A stretch of DNA of 64,000 nt from contig CANRHH010000008.1 in NCBI GenBank assembly GCA_947630375.1, positions 8,745 to 72,744 on the forward strand, given 5' to 3'. Origin of the DNA: an uncultured Oscillospiraceae bacterium (GTDB lineage Bacteria > Bacillota > Clostridia > Oscillospirales > Oscillospiraceae). The position numbers and the translations under genes were made by a program. Numbering within the stretch: position 1 is the first letter of the stretch; each line of letters begins with the position of its first letter. Shown here piece after piece: positions 3,282 through 63,656 of the stretch. Below the pieces are notes generated by a model. The model had not been told where the DNA came from and made no database searches. It saw only the letters and a list, made by a program, of their open reading frames with translations.

Positions 3282-5399
3282 TTAAGAATATTGTTCTGCC
3301 AAATAGATCTTGGCCCGGCTCTGGATGGCCGCGGCGGCTTCCTCCAGAGGACGGCCGGAGGCAAAGGCTTTCTCCGCCTCCTCGGTGATGATGTCGCTGA
3401 TCACGTCGCCCCGGACCCAGCCCTTAGCCTGGGCCACGGCCTCCTTCAGCCGGTCCGCGTCCTCCTGGGTGAAGGTGGTGTAGGAGTCCGGCCCCATGAG
3501 CTTGGCGGTGTACCGGTCGAAAGCCTCCACGGTCACCGGGAAGGAGAAACCGGTGATGCTCTCGGCCTGGACCCGCACATCCAGCAGGGTCCGCAGAAAG
3601 GCCCAGGCCCCGTCCTTGTGCTGGCTGGCGGCCAGGATGCTGAAGCCGCCCAGGCCCCGGATCAGGTGCACACAGCCCTCCCGGCCGGGCAGGCCCGCAT
3701 AGAAGTAGTCCTGGCCGAACTGCTGCCGCAGGTAATTGGGCAGGCCGCCGTGGACGGTGGTCGCCTGGAGGGCGGCGCTGTCGGCGTTGGCCATCTGGTC
3801 GTCGGTATAGCTGTTCCAGATCTCCAGCCATTTGGCAAAGCTGGGATCGTCAAAAAAGCAGGTGGCGTTTTCCCGGTCCACATACTCCACGCTGGCCAGG
3901 TACAGCACGATGTCCGCCAGGCTGGAGCGGGAGTAGCCGTCAAAGAGGGTGACGCCCTCGGGCAGGGTATCCCGCAGGGCCAGGAGGGAATCCACCGTCC
4001 AGCTCTTGGCCTCCTCCGCGAGGGAGACGGGGGCCTCGATGGTATAGAGCTGGAAACCCGGATCCAGCTGGTACAGATGCCCGCCCTCCAGGGCGCTGTC
4101 CAGCAGGCCGGGGAGGAAGGCGTCCCGGTTGTAGACCGGGTCCGCGTCGATGTAGGGCAGCAGGTCCGCACACAGGCCGCTGTCCAGCCCGAAGCGGGTA
4201 AACGAACTCTCCTTATCCACCGTGCTGCCCAGGCAGAGCAGATCCGGCCCCTTGCCGGAGATCAGCTCGGTGCGGAAGGCCTCCATATCCTCGGGCATGA
4301 TCCGCCGTTCACGGACCACATAGTCCTCGCTGCTCTGGTTGAAGATGGAGATGGCCTTGTCCACGTAAATGCCCACGGCGCCCGCGCCCACGGCCAGCTC
4401 CAGCTTCTGCCGGGCCGGACCCCGGTAAGAGCTCAGGCGGAGGATCTCCGTCTCACAGGTCAGGTAGATCTCCCCGGCCGCGGTGAGGTGGACGCTGCTC
4501 AGCCAGAAGGAGTCCACGCCGGCCTCCAGCCAGTTGATGACTTCTGTCCGCTCCCCGGTGGCCGGGTCCAGGGTCCAGAGCCCGTCGGAGCTGGCCACGC
4601 AGACCGCCTCCTCGCTGGCGCAGGACTCCACATAATAGGGGCTGAAATCAGGCAGCTCCACCGGAGAGGACAGCGCGCCCTCGCCGTCCATCTCCCAGAG
4701 GGTGACGCCCTTGCCGCTCTCGCTCTCGGTATAGGCAAAGACCCGGTCCCCGGCGGTGGCGTAAACGGAGAGCAGGCCCTGGTCCGCGCCGGGGACGGTG
4801 CCCAGAGGCTCCCCCTGGAGGGAATAGAGGTGGTCAGACAGGAGGAGCTTGTCCCCTAAGAGCGTGCAGCTGTCGAACCAGAAGGACTCGGCCCCCTCTA
4901 AGACCACGCTGCCGTTGAAAGCGTCAGAGGCGTCCCAGCTGTAGAGGGTGCCGACGGTGCCCTGTTCGGTGTAGGTGCTGGTCAGCAGATAGGCGCCGCT
5001 GCCGTTCACGGCCAGCCCCGCTAAGTTCTGCCCTATGACGCCGGTCTCTTCCTCCGGCTGGGCCTCCGGGATCTCCAGCGCCTGCCAGTCGGAGCCGCTC
5101 AGGTCAGAGACGTAGAGGCTGGGGCCGGCGTCGCTGCAGTAGGCGGCGTAGAGCCTGTCCCCGGCCAGGACCATCGCGGCCACGTCGTTTTCCGGCTCGG
5201 GGGCGGGGATGGACTCCACTTTCCAGCGTGTCTCCAGACCGTCTGCGGAGACCTCCTCCGGCGCCGCCGTCTCGCTGCCGGCGGCCGGGGGATCCGTTTG
5301 CGCCGGCGGGGCGCTCTGTTTCCCGCAGCCCGTCAGGCTCACGACGAAGGCCGCCAGCAGCAGAAAGGCCAGCAGCCGCAGATAGGGGTTGTTTTTCAT
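3282..5399 (-). CDS. Large lipoprotein, paralog of 1076..3217
   Basis: It has a lipobox (VVSLTGC-G). The length and architecture match its neighbour, and the two share the C-terminal end motif AAAAIQSRAKIYLAEQY versus AAAASQSRAAIYMAEKY. Confidence 0.7.
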   Translation of the reverse strand: MKNNPYLRLLAFLLLAAFVVSLTGCGKQSAPPAQTDPPAAGSETAAPEEVSADGLETRWKVESIPAPEPENDVAAMVLAGDRLYAAYCSDAGPSLYVSDLSGSDWQALEIPEAQPEEETGVIGQNLAGLAVNGSGAYLLTSTYTEQGTVGTLYSWDASDAFNGSVVLEGAESFWFDSCTLLGDKLLLSDHLYSLQGEPLGTVPGADQGLLSVYATAGDRVFAYTESESGKGVTLWEMDGEGALSSPVELPDFSPYYVESCASEEAVCVASSDGLWTLDPATGERTEVINWLEAGVDSFWLSSVHLTAAGEIYLTCETEILRLSSYRGPARQKLELAVGAGAVGIYVDKAISIFNQSSEDYVVRERRIMPEDMEAFRTELISGKGPDLLCLGSTVDKESSFTRFGLDSGLCADLLPYIDADPVYNRDAFLPGLLDSALEGGHLYQLDPGFQLYTIEAPVSLAEEAKSWTVDSLLALRDTLPEGVTLFDGYSRSSLADIVLYLASVEYVDRENATCFFDDPSFAKWLEIWNSYTDDQMANADSAALQATTVHGGLPNYLRQQFGQDYFYAGLPGREGCVHLIRGLGGFSILAASQHKDGAWAFLRTLLDVRVQAESITGFSFPVTVEAFDRYTAKLMGPDSYTTFTQEDADRLKEAVAQAKGWVRGDVISDIITEEAEKAFASGRPLEEAAAAIQSRAKIYLAEQYS

Positions 5400-58938: not shown

Positions 58939-60147
58939 TCAGGTTCTTTGTGCTTGGCCGTTACCCCTTTGCTTACCCCCAAAGGCAGCAGAGACGGCCT
59001 TCACCGTGTCGCTGGGGCGGTTGGCCATGAGATGGGTGTAGACGTTGAGCGTCAGGTTGGCGGTGGCGTGACCGGCCAAGTATTGCACCGTCTTGATGTC
59101 GGCCCCGGACATCACCAGCTCCGTGATGTAAGTGTGCCGCAATTGATGCGGGGTCACCTTAAAATCAAGGGAGATCTCCACCCCATGATTACGGATCCGG
59201 TCACCGAGCTGGAGCATCTTGCGATATGGCTTGCCGTTTTCCATGCCTTGGATCTCCCGGACGCTGCGAACCCGGATCGCGTCCCAGGCCCGACGAAAGG
59301 ATGTGGCGCTCATGGGCCTGCCTTTCTGGTCAGGGACCACATAGAGGTTTTTGCTTTTCGTCTTTTCCTTCTCCAGCAGCTCCACCAGCGGCTCTGGGAT
59401 GGGGATGTCCCGCTTCGCCGCACGGCTTTTTAAGGCATCGTCCACGATGGGCTTGTTTTTCCCTTCCCATCGCAGAGCCCGCCGCACGGAGATGTATGGC
59501 GGGACGGCGTCAAGGAAAACACAATCCCATTGCAGGGCAAGGATCTCTTCCCGCCGAAGCCCCGCATAGAGAGCAAGGGCGGCGATCAGGCCCGCCTTCG
59601 TCCCGGACAGCGCGTCCATGAGGCGCCGCTGCTGTTCCGCCGTCAAGGGGATCTTTTCGGCCGATGCCTTTCCCGCCGCCTTCAGGTCCCGGCAAGGGGA
59701 CCGGGCAATCAAATCATTGTTTTCCGCCGCGGCGAAGATCCTCTTTAGTGTAGTGACAATTTTTTGCTGTGAGGATTTGGACAGGTGCGCGGCAGCGGCC
59801 ATGACGGCCTGGATGTCATCCGGCGTTATGCTCCGGAGGGGGCGGGGGCCGATGATGGGGCAGATGTGATTATTGATCGCATTGCGGTAATCCTCTTTTC
59901 GCTTTGCGCTGAGACCCTCGGCATTCAGCGCGTACCAGCGGGCGGCGTACTGATAGATAAGGGGATCCTCCGCCGTCTGCCGGGTGCGGCTGAGCTGGAG
60001 CTGCCGGGCTTTGACCTTTTCCCTCAGCTCCGGTTTGGTCTTGCCGTAGACATCGACCCAGCGGCCGCTGTTTTCGTCTTTGATGCGCTTACGGTAGAGC
60101 CTGGTCTTTTCGCTATACGAAAATTCCGGGGCGTTTTTTCGCGGCAT
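58939..60147 (-). CDS. Tyrosine-type site-specific integrase
   Basis: The catalytic region is HQLRHTYITELV...LAGHATANLTLNVYTH (R..H..R..Y pattern). The ATG at 60147 follows AAAGGAGGAAAA. Confidence 0.92.
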   Translation of the reverse strand: MPRKNAPEFSYSEKTRLYRKRIKDENSGRWVDVYGKTKPELREKVKARQLQLSRTRQTAEDPLIYQYAARWYALNAEGLSAKRKEDYRNAINNHICPIIGPRPLRSITPDDIQAVMAAAAHLSKSSQQKIVTTLKRIFAAAENNDLIARSPCRDLKAAGKASAEKIPLTAEQQRRLMDALSGTKAGLIAALALYAGLRREEILALQWDCVFLDAVPPYISVRRALRWEGKNKPIVDDALKSRAAKRDIPIPEPLVELLEKEKTKSKNLYVVPDQKGRPMSATSFRRAWDAIRVRSVREIQGMENGKPYRKMLQLGDRIRNHGVEISLDFKVTPHQLRHTYITELVMSGADIKTVQYLAGHATANLTLNVYTHLMANRPSDTVKAVSAAFGGKQRGNGQAQRT

Positions 60148-60300
60148 TTTTCCTCCTTTTCTCTTGCGCCCCGGCCCGCGGTGTGCTAAGATAAAAGGGC
60201 AGACCAAGGCCTTGGTTTTGATCGACGGGGTTTTTCTGCGTGGCCGGCTTGAGCTTCCACCTTCAAGCCGGCCTTTTTTGTGTCCAAATCGGACACGGGG

Positions 60301-60637: not shown

Positions 60638-61378
60638 TTATTCTATATCTTTACTGTAGACGACGGTCACGTCAGCGCGGTATATGTAGTCCGCCGCGCT
60701 CCGGGGACGGTCGTCAAATTCGTCGTTATCCTCCGGGCGGAAGCGCTCAACATCCAAGCGGGCCGAGGTGAGGCGGTCCACAACATCCAGAAAGGCTTGG
60801 ACCTGGGGCGCGGGCACGTTGCCGATGCCCATGTCGTTATAGGTGATAAGGACAGCGTCTTTTCCCTTATAATCGTAGGACTCAAAGCCAATGGTCCCTT
60901 CTCCGTCGTTTGCCAGGGCTTCTTTCAGGACCCGCTGTCGACTGCTGCCGTCATCGTTATCATAGGTGACACCGGCGACCCGAAAGCGCAGACGGCCGTG
61001 GGTTCGTTCAAACTCGGCCTGCCGGGCGGATGCCTCCTTGCGATCATTTTCTATCTTTTCCTTTAATTCGGCAATCTCTTTTTCCGTTTTGGCTGCTTTT
61101 TCCTGAAGTTCAGCTTGCTTCTCTTTTAGTCGGTGGATGCGCTCAGCTTTTTCTGCTTCCGCTTTCTGCCGAGCAGCCTCACGCGCCTTCCCCTGCCGGT
61201 GAAAATTCAGTGTATAGCTGACAGCCCACCACACGACCAGAGCAAAGACAATGATGCCGACGATCAAGCCTCCAAGATTTCCCTGCCACCATGCATTTGA
61301 AATCAGGGTCATGGGCAGTACAAGGAGCACGATCCGCAAGGCCACGCCCCAAATTGTATAGGTTTTATCGTTTTTCAT
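60638..61378 (-). CDS. Membrane-anchored coiled-coil protein with a C-terminal HIRAN-like domain
   Basis: It has two N-terminal TM helices, a Lys/Glu/Ala coiled coil, then RFRVAGVTYDNDDG...IGNVPAPQVQAFL, which resembles HIRAN. The ATG at 61378 follows AGAGGAGAG. Confidence 0.65.
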   Translation of the reverse strand: MKNDKTYTIWGVALRIVLLVLPMTLISNAWWQGNLGGLIVGIIVFALVVWWAVSYTLNFHRQGKAREAARQKAEAEKAERIHRLKEKQAELQEKAAKTEKEIAELKEKIENDRKEASARQAEFERTHGRLRFRVAGVTYDNDDGSSRQRVLKEALANDGEGTIGFESYDYKGKDAVLITYNDMGIGNVPAPQVQAFLDVVDRLTSARLDVERFRPEDNDEFDDRPRSAADYIYRADVTVVYSKDIE

Positions 61379-61411
61379 CCATTTCTCTCCTCTATCCAAA
61401 ATCTACGTAGA

Positions 61412-61792
61412 TTATATTGCCGACTCGCCGTCTGATTCGGGAGGGCCGGCCTTGTATTCGTCCATGGCATTTAGCCCGCGGGCATCTACCAAAAGATGCT
61501 GCTGGCCAGCATCGTTTAAATTGTGGTATATAGTATCAATTTCTTCAAACCTTTTGTCCTTGCCATTTACTGGTGAGGATTTTTTTTCATTCTCCGGCAT
61601 TCCGTTCAAATACTCCAGAGAAACGCCAAGGCCATCAGACAATTTAAAAGCTACGTCAAGGGATACCTTGTTTTGCTTGCGGACGACAATGCCTCTGATC
61701 GTCGAGTCGGCTACACCTGAAAGCCGGGCAACGTCAGCCACAGTCAAATTTCTTTCCTGCATTATGGAACTAAGCACACGGTAAATCTCCAT
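61412..61792 (-). CDS. XRE-family HTH repressor (phage cI-like)
   Basis: The HTH reads LTVADVARLSGVADSTIRGIV. The ATG at 61792 follows GGAGGA. It is divergent from a Cro-like gene. Confidence 0.85.
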   Translation of the reverse strand: MEIYRVLSSIMQERNLTVADVARLSGVADSTIRGIVVRKQNKVSLDVAFKLSDGLGVSLEYLNGMPENEKKSSPVNGKDKRFEEIDTIYHNLNDAGQQHLLVDARGLNAMDEYKAGPPESDGESAI

Positions 61793-61865
61793 CAAATTTT
61801 CCTCCGCTGTAAACATATCATAACACGCATTATCGCGCATTGCAAGATTTTTTTCACGCAAAGTA

Positions 61866-61894
61866 TTGACAAATCTTTTATTGAGTGATTAAAT
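61866..61894 (+). promoter_or_regulatory. Rightward (Cro-side) promoter of the switch region
   Basis: TTGACA, a 17-nt spacer, then TTAAAT. Confidence 0.55.
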
Positions 61895-61938
61895 TAAGAG
61901 GAAATCACGCAATGCGCGATTTTTAAGGGGGTGTTTTT

Positions 61939-62160
61939 TTGAAACCAAACGGGATAGTTTACTCTAACCTTCGCGCAGAGATGAGTCGGACTAATATCGG
62001 CATAAAGGATATCGCCAAGGCTTGCGATTTTAACCGGGACACTCTCGCAAGAAAACTTGCGAAGAAATCTCCGCTTTACCTTGACGAGGCATTTAAAATT
62101 CAGCAGGCATTTTTCCCGGACAAAGAGCTCCGGTATCTTTTCGATTGTGCTGCTGAGTAA
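61939..62160 (+). CDS. Small XRE/Cro-like HTH protein
   Basis: The 73-aa protein contains IGIKDIAKACDFNRDTLARKLAKKSPLYLDEAF. It has a TTG start after AAGGGGG. Confidence 0.7.
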   Translation: MKPNGIVYSNLRAEMSRTNIGIKDIAKACDFNRDTLARKLAKKSPLYLDEAFKIQQAFFPDKELRYLFDCAAE

Positions 62161-62203
62161 CCCGCCCCGCATCGGCGGGGCGTATGAAAGGAGGTGGAAG
62201 AGC

Positions 62204-62311
62204 GTGGGAGGCAAAAACACGGACCGGCTTATTACCTTCAGCATCGTCACCAGCACTGCCCTTATTCTGCTGAACCTTCTGAGGCTGTTGAGGATCTTTG
62301 GCCTCACTTAA
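62204..62311 (+). CDS. Candidate 35-aa single-TM peptide (P1)
   Basis: The GTG follows GAAAGGAGGTGG. The translation is VGGKNTDRLITFSIVTSTALILLNLLRLLRIFGLT. The leader (hairpin plus SD) is duplicated at 62641..62684. Confidence 0.35.
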   Translation: MGGKNTDRLITFSIVTSTALILLNLLRLLRIFGLT

Positions 62312-62612
62312 AAAAGGTAAAAAGCAGCATTGATATTTCAACAAAGATTGCAATGGTTGAAAGCAGCGCCCCATAAGTTGCCCTCTGCTCTGTGCGCTTC
62401 ATCATCCGATATGCTTCAAACTCTTCCTGACCTGCGGGGCTCAGGGTCACAACGGTGTCTGCCTCAAAGCGATAGTCCGAGAAGGACAGGCGGCCAGGCC
62501 CGGCAAGTTCCTGAAGCTGCTGATAGTTCTGGAGGTTTGCAGCCTTCATGATCGCGCCCAGCGTTTTATGGCGGAGGACAGTTTTACAGACCTTATAGCT
62601 TTTTGCAGTCAT
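62304..62612 (-). CDS. 102-aa protein with a soluble N-domain and a C-terminal TM anchor (unknown function)
   Basis: The RBS is GGAGG. The C-terminus ALLSTIAIFVEISMLLFTFFK is hydrophobic. The 3' end overlaps P1 by 8 nt. Confidence 0.55.
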   Translation of the reverse strand: MTAKSYKVCKTVLRHKTLGAIMKAANLQNYQQLQELAGPGRLSFSDYRFEADTVVTLSPAGQEEFEAYRMMKRTEQRATYGALLSTIAIFVEISMLLFTFFK

Positions 62613-62681
62613 AGCAGGACCTCCAGGGTTTAAATTACTTCACGCCGCCCATCGGCGGGTCATGTGAAAGGAGGGGAGACG

Positions 62682-62762
62682 GTGGACTATCTGAAAAAGC
62701 ATATCTTTGACATTGGCGTTTTGATCGTCGGGTTGGTCGCACTCATAAGAACGTTCTTATAA
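62682..62762 (+). CDS. Candidate 26-aa single-TM peptide (P2)
   Basis: The GTG follows GAAAGGAGGGGAG. The translation is VDYLKKHIFDIGVLIVGLVALIRTFL. Confidence 0.35.
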   Translation: MDYLKKHIFDIGVLIVGLVALIRTFL

Positions 62763-62793
62763 GGGCGATAGCTGAAGAAAGGGAGGGAAGACG

Positions 62794-62889
62794 GTGGGCA
62801 GAGATCCCTTATATGGCTGGCGCTTTGTGATCTGGTCGATGATCGGCGGCATTGTGGGGACGGTCATAATTGCAGTTTGTTTCGGATAA
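62794..62889 (+). CDS. Candidate 31-aa single-TM peptide (P3)
   Basis: The GTG follows AAAGGGAGGGAAG. The translation is VGRDPLYGWRFVIWSMIGGIVGTVIIAVCFG. The 3' end overlaps the convergent gene by 26 nt. Confidence 0.3.
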   Translation: MGRDPLYGWRFVIWSMIGGIVGTVIIAVCFG

Positions 62890-63220
62890 AAGCGACCAGC
62901 ACGGAGACCGCAACGCCGGCTATAAAGCCATACAGCCGTTCCAGCCATTTGTCCCTCTCCTCCATGCGGCGGATCTCTTTGTAGGCCTTCCCGCCCTGGG
63001 TAAGGGAGGCCCCGGCGATGGCCCCGGAGGAATAGTAGGCCAGCTCAACAAGCGCCTTGTCCGCAAGGCCCTTCAAGATGCGGCGGGTTTCATCCTCTGC
63101 ATACCCAAAGGTTTGCTCAAGATATTCATATGTGTAGACGCGTTGCGGCCCGCCGGGGCCTCCGGCAATCAGGCGGTCCAGCATTCTTTTAGATTCTTTA
63201 TCCAGGTACACGGCCTGCAC
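62864..63220 (-). CDS. Winged-helix-like (YjcQ-like, tentative) protein with a C-terminal TM anchor
   Basis: It has the LDRLIAGG...YEYLEQTFGYAEDETRRILKGLADKALVE pattern and then the hydrophobic segment LYGFIAGVAVSVLVAFI. The start is GTG 63220 or GTG 63211. Confidence 0.55.
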   Translation of the reverse strand: MQAVYLDKESKRMLDRLIAGGPGGPQRVYTYEYLEQTFGYAEDETRRILKGLADKALVELAYYSSGAIAGASLTQGGKAYKEIRRMEERDKWLERLYGFIAGVAVSVLVAFIRNKLQL

Positions 63221-63326
63221 CCCCTTTCAGTTTATTGTATCACAGGGCCGGGAGCGGGCGCAAGGTAGCAGATTTACAGTATTTCGAGAAAAAGCCCAAA
63301 GAGGGCTACAGGGAAAGGAGGAAACC

Positions 63327-63656
63327 ATGCAGCGGAATACTATCAAGCTGACACGGAAGACGGCCCAGGCCATTGTGAAGCAGGAGTTGGGGATCTCCGG
63401 CGCGGCCCTGGTGCGGGAGGATACCCCGTCCTTTATGCAGCGGTACACCATGAAGCTGGGGGTGCTGGAGGTCACGGTGGATAACGGGGCCTATGAAAAC
63501 AACGGCTGCTTCCTGCTGAAGCTGGCCCACAATTTCCAGGGGGAGCTGCGTATCTACATAGACCCGAAGACCCTGGCCGAAAACGATGAGGCGGGGGACC
63601 GGTACAGGGCGGAGTGCCGCCGGGAGATGTGCGAGTGCTGCTTCAAGGGGGCGTGA
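63327..63656 (+). CDS. Hypothetical phage protein (109 aa)
   Basis: The RBS is AAAGGAGGAAACC. Composition is normal. The stop overlaps the start of the next gene. Confidence 0.55.
   Translation: MQRNTIKLTRKTAQAIVKQELGISGAALVREDTPSFMQRYTMKLGVLEVTVDNGAYENNGCFLLKLAHNFQGELRIYIDPKTLAENDEAGDRYRAECRREMCECCFKGA

Follow-up and report, generated by a model that had tools for sequence, protein, structure and literature searches.

Why does a bacterial genome carry reading frames of some 30 codons, each for a hydrophobic peptide, directly opposite genes for small membrane-anchored proteins? The question is raised by the right end of a 64,000-nucleotide (nt) stretch of DNA from an uncultured Oscillospiraceae bacterium (contig CANRHH010000008.1, positions 8,745 to 72,744; hereafter the window). 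The original prediction, made from the letters alone, had described two cassettes at positions 62161-63220 of this window. In each of them, a GC hairpin and a Shine-Dalgarno (SD) sequence precede tiny open reading frames (ORFs), named P1 to P3, which converge with a minus-strand gene; a novel toxin/immunity or exclusion module was proposed. Re-reading of the sequence confirmed the hairpins, the SD sequences, P1-P3 and the two convergent minus-strand ORFs at the coordinates reported. Judged by its sequence relatives, cassette 2 is a member of a conserved, unnamed and so far undescribed two-gene module of temperate gut-bacterial phages, in which a micropeptide with one transmembrane (TM) helix accompanies a tail-anchored winged-helix protein. 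The features of cassette 2 are as follows (aa, amino acids).

62645..62658, both strands: GC hairpin 2, CCGCC-CATC-GGCGG, 5-bp stem with loop CATC
62667-62674, plus strand: SD AAAGGAGG, followed by the P2 ORF from GTG 62682 to 62762, 26 aa with one TM helix
62781-62787, plus strand: SD GGGAGGG (GGAGG 7 nt upstream of the start), followed by the P3 ORF from GTG 62794 to 62889, 31 aa
62864..63211, minus strand: gene of the 115-aa protein, with a GTG start at 63211 that fits its SD
63234..63263, minus strand: promoter of the 115-aa gene, with an extended -10 TGATACAAT at 63234-63242 and a -35 TTGCGC at 63258-63263, 18 nt upstream

A family of tail-anchored winged-helix proteins

The minus-strand gene of cassette 2 had been given a length of 115 to 118 aa. 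The gene is indeed present, and the start codon that matches its SD yields 115 aa; an alternative GTG at 63220 (ORF 62864-63220) would yield 118 aa. A word-index search with the 115-aa protein returned only the protein itself and one 84% relative. An exhaustive HMMER search, whose profile had been seeded by this protein, returned 65 cluster representatives, nearly all of them 100-130 aa long. In the family alignment, the N-terminal domain carries the pattern LD..I...PD....FYT, followed by a wing (LT..G), and the best-conserved stretch, YKE...LE...RWKER..GF..G, leads into the C-terminal TM helix. Nearly invariant residues are L11, G74, W89, R92 and G95, and in a second alignment set Y77, G95, F96 and G99. 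The TM helix itself is marked by a nearly invariant G95-F96-x-x-G99, with the pattern G...[GAS] in 37 of 39 members.

All family traits are found in the 115-aa protein, namely a winged helix, the juxtamembrane motif, a C-terminal TM helix and a length of about 105-125 aa. Its AlphaFold2 (AF2) model, built with 31 homologues, reached a predicted local distance difference test score (pLDDT) of 86.8, with helices at residues 5-16, 28-35 and 39-51, a beta hairpin at 55-70 and a long helix at 77-112. Foldseek matched this model to the winged helices of MarR/MepR, ArsR, LexA-N and TFE with a probability of about 1, and among PDB chains the sequence profile of the family matches TubR and MarR. The model helix extends to residue 112 of 115, and in family members only a few residues follow the TM helix, leaving at most about 6 residues exposed beyond the membrane. 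The ratio of non-synonymous to synonymous substitution (dN/dS) of the gene is 0.11. A winged helix with a C-terminal TM anchor, which the original prediction had seen in both minus-strand proteins, is thus supported for the 115-aa protein by the AF2 model, Foldseek and the profile, but not for the 102-aa protein of cassette 1, which is one sequence with a poor model.

No significant match to the 102-aa protein, the 115-aa protein or P1-P3 was obtained from Pfam, PHROGs, PADLOC or NCBIfam, and Rfam, searched at E values up to 1, gave nothing at the locus, antitoxin RNAs included. A PHROG 'holin' match (E 0.006) was dismissed because it covered the TM segment alone. In the literature searched, the pairing of a micropeptide with a tail-anchored winged helix was not described. 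The view that this combination is not a described system therefore stands, as the locus matches no entry of these five databases. Neither the DNA nor the proteins of the module had a match among GenBank phages, and IMG/VR viral contigs contained no relatives. No GTDB genome carried the 115-aa protein itself, and the search with the tandem subfamily (see below) found a single metagenome-assembled genome (MAG), of Provencibacterium. JGI metagenomes yielded no locus for the close subfamily and four loci for the tandem subfamily.

A partner micropeptide in two gene orders

We inspected the DNA around 15 distinct family members (L-numbers denote related loci or contigs). A TM peptide of 26-36 aa is encoded next to the family gene in 13 of these 15 loci. 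Eight loci have the convergent order of the window, in which a TM ORF of 26-33 aa with a strong SD overlaps the 3' end of the winged-helix gene by 13-41 nt. Their peptides are:

window: P3
L005: VERDPLYGWRFVIWAAIGAVVGSIIIAVYFG
L021: MDKKDPLSEWRSVFWYVIGVLVGLIIVRAWIL
L008: MKNDDDMNRLRYWIWYLIGAIVGAILIRLLAR
L009: MMNDDKDLWIGIRFAVWYIIGGIIGALILRFFL
L015: MFDYLKRNWRFWLWYMIGGVTAKVILDALLHS
L022-24: MKSSGFDWLIGVLVGAAVVMLLLKFAFHVI
L028: MRYYLEGFLIGVVFLIVVNLIEKFVL

The other five loci (L011, L019/20, L012-14, L017/18 and L026/27) have a tandem order. Here, the winged-helix gene is directly preceded on its own strand by a TM ORF of 30-36 aa, with an overlap of 4 nt between the stop of this ORF and the start of the gene; typical peptides of this group begin MKSKAFDWFIGFLTG and MKYKLKLDWLSGALVG. 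All 13 peptides align on the core W-x(1-2)-[IS]G-x3-G. The L022 peptide, with FDWLIGVLVG, combines the convergent arrangement with the FDW-IG motif of the tandem type, which argues that both gene orders hold one peptide family. In L026/L027, more small membrane ORFs lie upstream of the tandem pair (about 1680-2070 and 3620-4005), one of 62 aa with a glycine-rich TM segment and a CxxC tail and one of 21 aa, so that a cluster of micro-membrane genes is formed.

P3 carries the W..IGxxxG motif of this family and has in-frame homologues in L005, L021, L008, L009, L015 and L022-24. Between the window and L005, its dN/dS is 0.24 over 23 non-overlapping codons (dS 0.67). The last 26 nt of P3 overlap the 115-aa gene; the motif is encoded outside this overlap, and hence its conservation is no by-product of the 115-aa gene. 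The claim that the small ORFs are real functional units is in line with these results, at least for P3, which retains its frame in relatives, with the dN/dS given above, and has homologues beside the family gene in the 13 loci. P3-type ORFs were annotated in few of the contigs examined.

The two loci that lack a peptide are L025 and L029, the latter a truncated-looking member. In L025 (Provencibacterium MAG, JAAWDS010000036.1, 3281-5345), the family member overlaps a Cys-rich ORF by 66 nt, and the lysogeny module there encodes three different small proteins with a C-terminal TM anchor, of 117 aa, of 132 aa and the family member.

The gene order thus flips between convergent and tandem while both products are kept, which points to an essential link between the two proteins. 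On these comparisons, the partnership is probably at the protein level, by contact between TM helices, and the antisense overlap would be an optional regulatory layer of the convergent lineage.

This bears on the known systems that the locus resembles most. Toxin-antitoxin (TA) loci of type I, such as bsrG/SR4, txpA/RatA and yonT/SR6 of Bacillus subtilis prophages and those of Clostridia (PMC3834814, PMC3531473, PMC5848175, PMC6563280), likewise combine a prophage gene for a hydrophobic single-TM peptide with a 3' overlap by an opposite unit and expected antisense control. In such a reading, P1-P3 would be membrane-damaging toxins, the 3' part of the convergent mRNA would be an RNA antitoxin that blocks translation or triggers RNase III decay, and the winged-helix protein would be incidental. 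The geometry is that of the systems cited above, with small hydrophobic peptides and converging, 3'-overlapping genes in a prophage, and the minus-strand transcript would span the P3 and P2 ORFs and their SDs up to the hairpin. However, the antisense partner here is no small RNA but the mRNA of a conserved protein, with a conserved fold and under strong purifying selection. Moreover, the overlap (8 and 26 nt of coding sequence in the two cassettes) is not integral, as five distinct relatives keep the pair in co-directional, translationally coupled tandem, where antisense pairing is impossible. Rfam offers no antitoxin match, and the conserved feature of the peptide is a helix-packing motif that matches one in the TM helix of the partner. 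A type I-like system is therefore very unlikely in our judgement. Since the 4-nt tandem overlaps make antisense dispensable, the type I layout, with which the original prediction had compared the locus, is not its core. On present sequence comparisons, the locus lacks the defining traits of a type I TA system and is not filed there.

The tandem relatives, with two small coupled genes, are closer in layout to toxin-first type II TA systems of the higBA kind. The second product also has a DNA-binding type of fold and a segment that possibly binds the first product. Yet the putative toxin would be a TM micropeptide and the putative antitoxin a tail-anchored protein with an acidic winged helix. 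Furthermore, the copy in the window is convergent and forms no operon, and no operator was found.

Position and transcription at the lysogeny switch

An integrated temperate element has its lysogeny module at the right end of the window, with the following landmarks.

58939-60207, minus strand: tyrosine integrase gene
61412-61861, minus strand: HTH_3 repressor gene
61866-61895: promoter of the cro transcript, TTGACA-18-TAAATT, as read from the sequence
61939..62160, plus strand: Cro-like helix-turn-helix gene, 73 aa, TTG start, opposite to the HTH_3 repressor gene, with weak matches to HTH_26/Phage_CP76 and PHROG repressors

The Cro-like gene comes first on the rightward (lytic) transcript, and both cassettes lie immediately to its right. 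A similar position was found in relatives. Seven of the eight convergent loci, all except the 766-nt contig L021, belong to a module that comprises an integrase or serine recombinase gene, a repressor gene and cro. In these seven, the peptide gene comes directly after cro or, in L023/L024, directly after a Bro-N gene. In phage lambda, cII is the first gene after cro and is overlapped at its 3' end by the convergent OOP transcript; unlike the convergent unit here, OOP is non-coding.

The promoter of the 115-aa gene appears to be conserved as well. Of 10 convergent-locus sequences examined, 8 have the pattern TGnTAnnAT at a distance of 28-35 nt ahead of the start codon of the winged-helix gene. 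With its own conserved promoter, the winged-helix gene is an independent unit, co-oriented with the repressor and integrase genes and directed against the lytic operon. Just upstream of this promoter lies one further element:

63293..63307, minus strand: terminator-like hairpin AGCCCTCTTTGGGCT followed by TTTTC, conserved in L005

To the right of this hairpin, no gene that points leftward can be seen; the hairpin may serve to insulate the promoter, or to stop an antisense transcript that is not apparent.

The GC hairpins at the other end of the cassettes had been regarded as part of a hairpin-SD leader that drives the small ORFs. Hairpin 2 lies between the start of the 102-aa gene and P2, 205 nt downstream of the stop of the 115-aa gene, and is marginal in stability (z score -0.6 on the plus and -1.9 on the minus strand). 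A hairpin homologous to it follows cro in L005. The leader turned out not to be conserved in relatives. L008, L009 and L015 have no such hairpin, and the SD of the peptide comes no more than 15-45 nt after cro. L022/L024 have one, GCCCGCUC-GAAA-GAGCGGGC-UUUUCU (z -4.5 and -3.4), just past the SD of the peptide, and there it is a canonical intrinsic terminator for the winged-helix strand. A conserved translational leader was therefore rejected as the role of the hairpin. The hairpins of the window and L005 occupy the same position as the L022/L024 terminator and are more stable on the minus strand, although no U tract follows hairpin 1 or hairpin 2 on either strand. By this comparison, it is plausible that the hairpins of the window terminate the convergent gene or form a structure at its 3' end. 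If transcripts end there, the 3' untranslated region of the winged-helix mRNA would be antisense to the whole P3/P2 coding region and its SDs. The promoters at the locus share no repeated operator-like site.

A proposed membrane pair wired to the cI/Cro decision

The matching small-xxx-small motifs in the peptide and in the TM helix of its partner suggest that the two helices pack against each other. We propose that the single-pass peptide of about 30 aa and the tail-anchored protein of about 110 aa meet in the membrane by packing of the GxxxG type. The winged helix would lie in the cytoplasm, joined through the conserved amphipathic helix (YKE...LE...RWKER) to the TM helix with its GFxxG, and the two products would act as a partnered, probably antagonistic pair. 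Being co-oriented with the repressor and integrase genes, the winged-helix gene should be on in the lysogen, and its transcript would extend as far as the GC hairpin, antisense to P3 and P2 as well as to their SDs. The lytic cro transcript would include P3 and would itself be antisense to the winged-helix gene. The two partners would then be expressed reciprocally, in a manner tied to the cI/Cro switch. The function we prefer is that of an immunity- or antitoxin-like guard, in which the tail-anchored protein would restrain, or be switched by, an early lytic membrane peptide. An antagonistic pair would suit both gene orders, since antagonists are co-expressed in operons and are also cross-regulated by antisense transcription. 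Taken as a whole, we give this explanation, a two-gene membrane pair convergently wired to the cI/Cro switch, an even chance of being right.

Pinholins also use glycine-zipper packing of TM helices and are kept in check by a membrane antagonist. In contrast to pinholin and antiholin, the pair described here lies outside the lysis cassette, and its peptides have one TM segment of about 20 residues.

A more far-reaching version would be a phage membrane switch. A tail-anchored winged helix made in the lysogen would be gated, through GxxxG packing, by the first post-Cro micropeptide and by an RNA toggle, coupling cI/Cro to the membrane with two interchangeable gene orders in phages of gut Clostridia. 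Such coupling could mean, for example, that a factor is sequestered or released, or that an exclusion or abortive function is armed or disarmed. We offer this version only tentatively, as possible rather than probable.

Several observations weigh against the proposed pair. The winged-helix domains of the family are mostly acidic (mean net charge -2.3, with 85% at or below zero), the basic part being the linker and TM segment, and the recognition helix is unconserved across the family. DNA binding is therefore not assured, and an autoregulating DNA-binding antitoxin is not the obvious reading. The member in L025 (32% identical) converges with an 85-aa Cys-rich ORF that has no TM segment, and no peptide is present. 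Peptide type and TM type co-vary over the loci, which shared descent could explain without contact between them. The hairpins of the window and L005 are not followed by a U tract, so that these sites are only putative terminators. Co-expression in tandem and reciprocal expression in convergent loci imply different regulatory logics. The two products could alternatively form an obligate complex that acts at infection only. In cassette 1, a promoter of its own could not be recognised for the 102-aa gene, and P1 and the 102-aa gene, having no relatives, receive no comparative support.

The acidity also makes doubtful the earlier view of a membrane-tethered DNA-binding protein. An acidic winged helix is odd among DNA binders and hints, from its composition, at a protein-binding role. 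This matters for an alternative explanation, in which the pair is a membrane-tethered regulator of lysis and lysogeny, a minimal counterpart of ToxR/ToxS or of the transcription factor-small ORF (TF-smORF) modules. The winged helix would bind phage DNA or a phage or host protein, and the micropeptide would stabilise, release or inactivate it, passing a membrane signal to the cI/Cro decision. The fold matches transcription regulators, the pair is located at the switch immediately 3' of cro, and a variable recognition helix would suit phage-specific targets. Nevertheless, the domains are acidic, the promoters share no operator-like repeat (a 16-bp palindrome at 62745-62760 is unique in the window), and the tandem members are found at a great distance from a switch of any kind; those of L011-L014, for instance, lie upstream of terminase. 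We consider a regulator of this kind distinctly unlikely.

Comparison with known regulators gives a similarly mixed picture. ToxR/ToxS, TcpP/TcpH and CadC (PMC5430869 for CadC) share the N-terminal cytoplasmic winged helix, the single TM helix and the small membrane partner. Their fold, however, is of the OmpR/PhoB type, not of the MarR/ArsR/LexA-N type found here, and with at most six or so residues past the TM helix our protein has no room for an extracytoplasmic sensor domain. The partner here has only about 30 aa, and the setting is a phage. In the TF-smORF induction modules, a soluble phage transcription factor switches on a small gene next to it, and the product of that small gene inactivates cI (Silpe et al. 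2023, PMC10432266). These modules likewise place a transcription factor-like phage gene beside a small ORF, with diverse sequences, a common logic and a link to lysis and lysogeny. They differ from the pair described here, in which the transcription factor-like protein has a membrane anchor, the small product is a peptide with a TM helix and the genes are in convergent or tandem order. The p16.7 protein of phage phi29, a membrane-anchored DNA-binding protein that organises phage replication (PMC4974454), is also an early phage protein with a single TM anchor and a nucleic-acid-binding type of domain. Its anchor is N-terminal, though, its fold is different, the phage is lytic and there is no micropeptide partner.

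Another alternative is that the locus is a superinfection-exclusion (sie) or defence moron. The lysogen would then make the tail-anchored protein, which would block incoming phage at the membrane. The peptide, made first on the lytic transcript, would switch this block off and so leave the lytic cycle of the prophage itself unhindered, or would be an accessory subunit. The site is typical of sie genes and morons, inside the lysogeny module, with its own promoter and opposite to the lytic operon. The protein is membrane-located according to the AF2 model, and a neighbouring slot in L005 holds an Ltp-type sie lipoprotein. As in the Ltp/Sie2009-type exclusion proteins (PMC3952083), a gene for a small membrane protein has its own promoter in a lysogeny module. 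However, there is no sequence or domain similarity to these proteins, nor to exclusion or defence families in PADLOC, PHROG or Pfam. The short tail outside the membrane is unlike Ltp or Sie2009; the bulk of the protein is cytoplasmic, and the peptide partner is taken to be obligatory. The tandem loci co-express both genes, which is a poor fit to an off-switch, and the need for a winged helix is left unexplained. On balance, we regard an exclusion moron as unlikely.

The preferred membrane pair has the advantage of being testable. The locus offers a defined peptide motif, a confidently modelled partner with a matching TM motif and a conserved promoter, and the occurrence of both convergent and tandem orders is a natural experiment by which coupling at the protein level can be told apart from coupling at the RNA level. 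Small genes without annotation abound in the lysogeny modules of gut Firmicutes phages, and gene callers routinely miss micropeptides. A membrane guard or switch tied to cI/Cro would be a new component of phage decision and immunity circuits and a new type of micropeptide-protein interaction. If the module instead serves TA-like addiction or exclusion, those classes would be extended to a membrane-anchored protein antagonist.

Cassette 1 and the repeated leader

Cassette 1 lies between the Cro-like gene and cassette 2 and consists of:

62163..62182, both strands: GC hairpin 1, CGCCCCGC-ATCG-GCGGGGCG, 8-bp stem with loop ATCG, about -18 kcal/mol
62187-62194, plus strand: SD AAAGGAGG, followed by the P1 ORF from GTG 62204 to 62311, 35 aa with one TM helix
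62304..62612, minus strand: gene of the 102-aa protein, with a soluble N-terminal part, a basic linker and a C-terminal TM helix, and GGAGG 7 nt before its ATG

Hairpin 1 directly follows the cro stop codon, 120 nt downstream of the stop of the 102-aa gene, and has z scores of -2.0 on the plus and -3.2 on the minus strand. P1 and the 102-aa ORF overlap by 8 nt. P1 has no homologue and lacks the W..IGxxxG motif. The 102-aa protein is an orphan, matching only itself among 5.8 billion proteins. Its single-sequence AF2 model has a pLDDT of 62.6 (helices 18-24 and 30-37, long helix 59-101). Compared with the family, BLASTP gave 28% identity over 32 aa (E 0.024), confined to the region of wing, linker and TM helix, and hhalign gave a probability of 22%. 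In a search of all window ORFs with the family hidden Markov model (HMM), the 102-aa ORF ranked first, yet with an E value of 0.72. By hhalign and the family HMM, the protein does not show the winged helix, YKE motif and TM helix of the family; judging from these comparisons, homology is possible but unproven. Without a promoter of its own, the 102-aa gene may be transcribed by readthrough from the 115-aa gene.

The two cassettes do share a repeated leader, as the original prediction had noted, with 84% identity over 32 nt (62163-62194 and 62643-62674). Hairpin 2 is much weaker than hairpin 1, however, and the coding parts are not demonstrably homologous. A 19-nt repeat from SD to GTG precedes P2 and P3 alike. 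Three homologous leaders, the two of the window and that of L005, front three different peptides, so that the hairpin-SD junction looks like a point of cassette exchange. What had been called a duplicated cassette is, on this evidence, better described as a duplicated junction with analogous cargo, the homology of which is unproven. Cassette 1 would then repeat this layout as an orphan second copy that came in at the same hairpin-SD junction.

P2 takes an intermediate position. It sits in a 112-nt segment that is missing from L005 and has the 19-nt repeat, in direct orientation, on its flanks. With the core FD-IGVLIVG, P2 is similar to the peptide family (L022, FDWLIGVLVG; L028, 26 aa), but the spacing is G-x4-G, so that it agrees with the partner motif only loosely. 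The last codons of P2 are spanned by a perfect 16-bp AT-rich palindrome, ATAAGAACGTTCTTAT (62745-62760), which also lies inside the segment that L005 lacks. It occurs once in the 64 kb; any match at up to 3 mismatches was obtained in 3 of 100 shuffles. A role as shared operator was rejected, as the window contains no second copy; the palindrome could be an operator or a recombination scar.

These features raise the possibility that cassette 2 alone is functional. Recombination at the hairpin-SD junction would then have left P1, P2 and perhaps the 102-aa ORF as by-products that are recent, decaying or due to chance. The lack of relatives of P1 and the 102-aa protein, the location of P2 in an indel absent from L005, the missing GxxxG spacing in P2 and family motif in P1, and the lack of a recognisable promoter for the 102-aa gene are all consistent with this. 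On the other hand, P1 and P2 each have a full AAAGGAGG SD 7-9 nt from the GTG, and this octamer has only seven copies in the 64 kb (both strands), two of which are the cassette leaders. All three peptides are hydropathy outliers as well. Among 261 mechanical ORFs of 20-40 aa in the window, 1.9% reach a 17-residue hydropathy of at least 2.0, and P1, P2 and P3 reach 2.01, 2.18 and 2.32, respectively. The ORFs, SDs, hairpins and overlaps are beyond chance and are outliers within the window. Furthermore, a good SD precedes the 102-aa ORF, each of the four metagenome contigs with this ORF (L001-L004) has it intact, and it is the top window ORF against the family HMM. We therefore regard cassette 2 as the sole functional unit as somewhat unlikely.

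Neighbouring genes and recurrence of the element

Six short metagenome contigs (L001-L004, L006 and L007) are 99.5-100% identical to this stretch of the window. The element thus recurs in several samples, but offers no variation to compare. On three identical contigs (L002-L004), automatic callers placed a 137-aa ORF antisense to cro (61894-62307, minus strand). This call, in place of the 73-aa Cro-like gene with its TTG start, is probably a mis-annotation, which also masks P1.

Two further genes of the lysogeny module lie on the strand of the integrase:

next after the integrase gene, minus strand: gene of a 110-aa PHROG_33872 protein
60638-61399, minus strand: gene of a 253-aa protein, between the integrase and repressor genes

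In the 253-aa protein, two TM helices at the N terminus are combined with a long coiled coil and a domain at the C terminus. Its matches are weak and confined to the coiled coil (spanin PHROGs; PADLOC LeoBC, E 1e-5). The slot of this gene is the one that holds the Ltp-type lipoprotein in L005, and the 253-aa protein is a candidate exclusion or defence protein.

A 109-aa gene lies 3' of the cassettes (63327-63656, plus strand). It has no family match and contains an internal 24-nt repeat (at 63327 and 63435, 83% identical). This gene is absent from L005, where a conserved HTH_31 gene directly follows the cassette, which marks another indel at a module junction.

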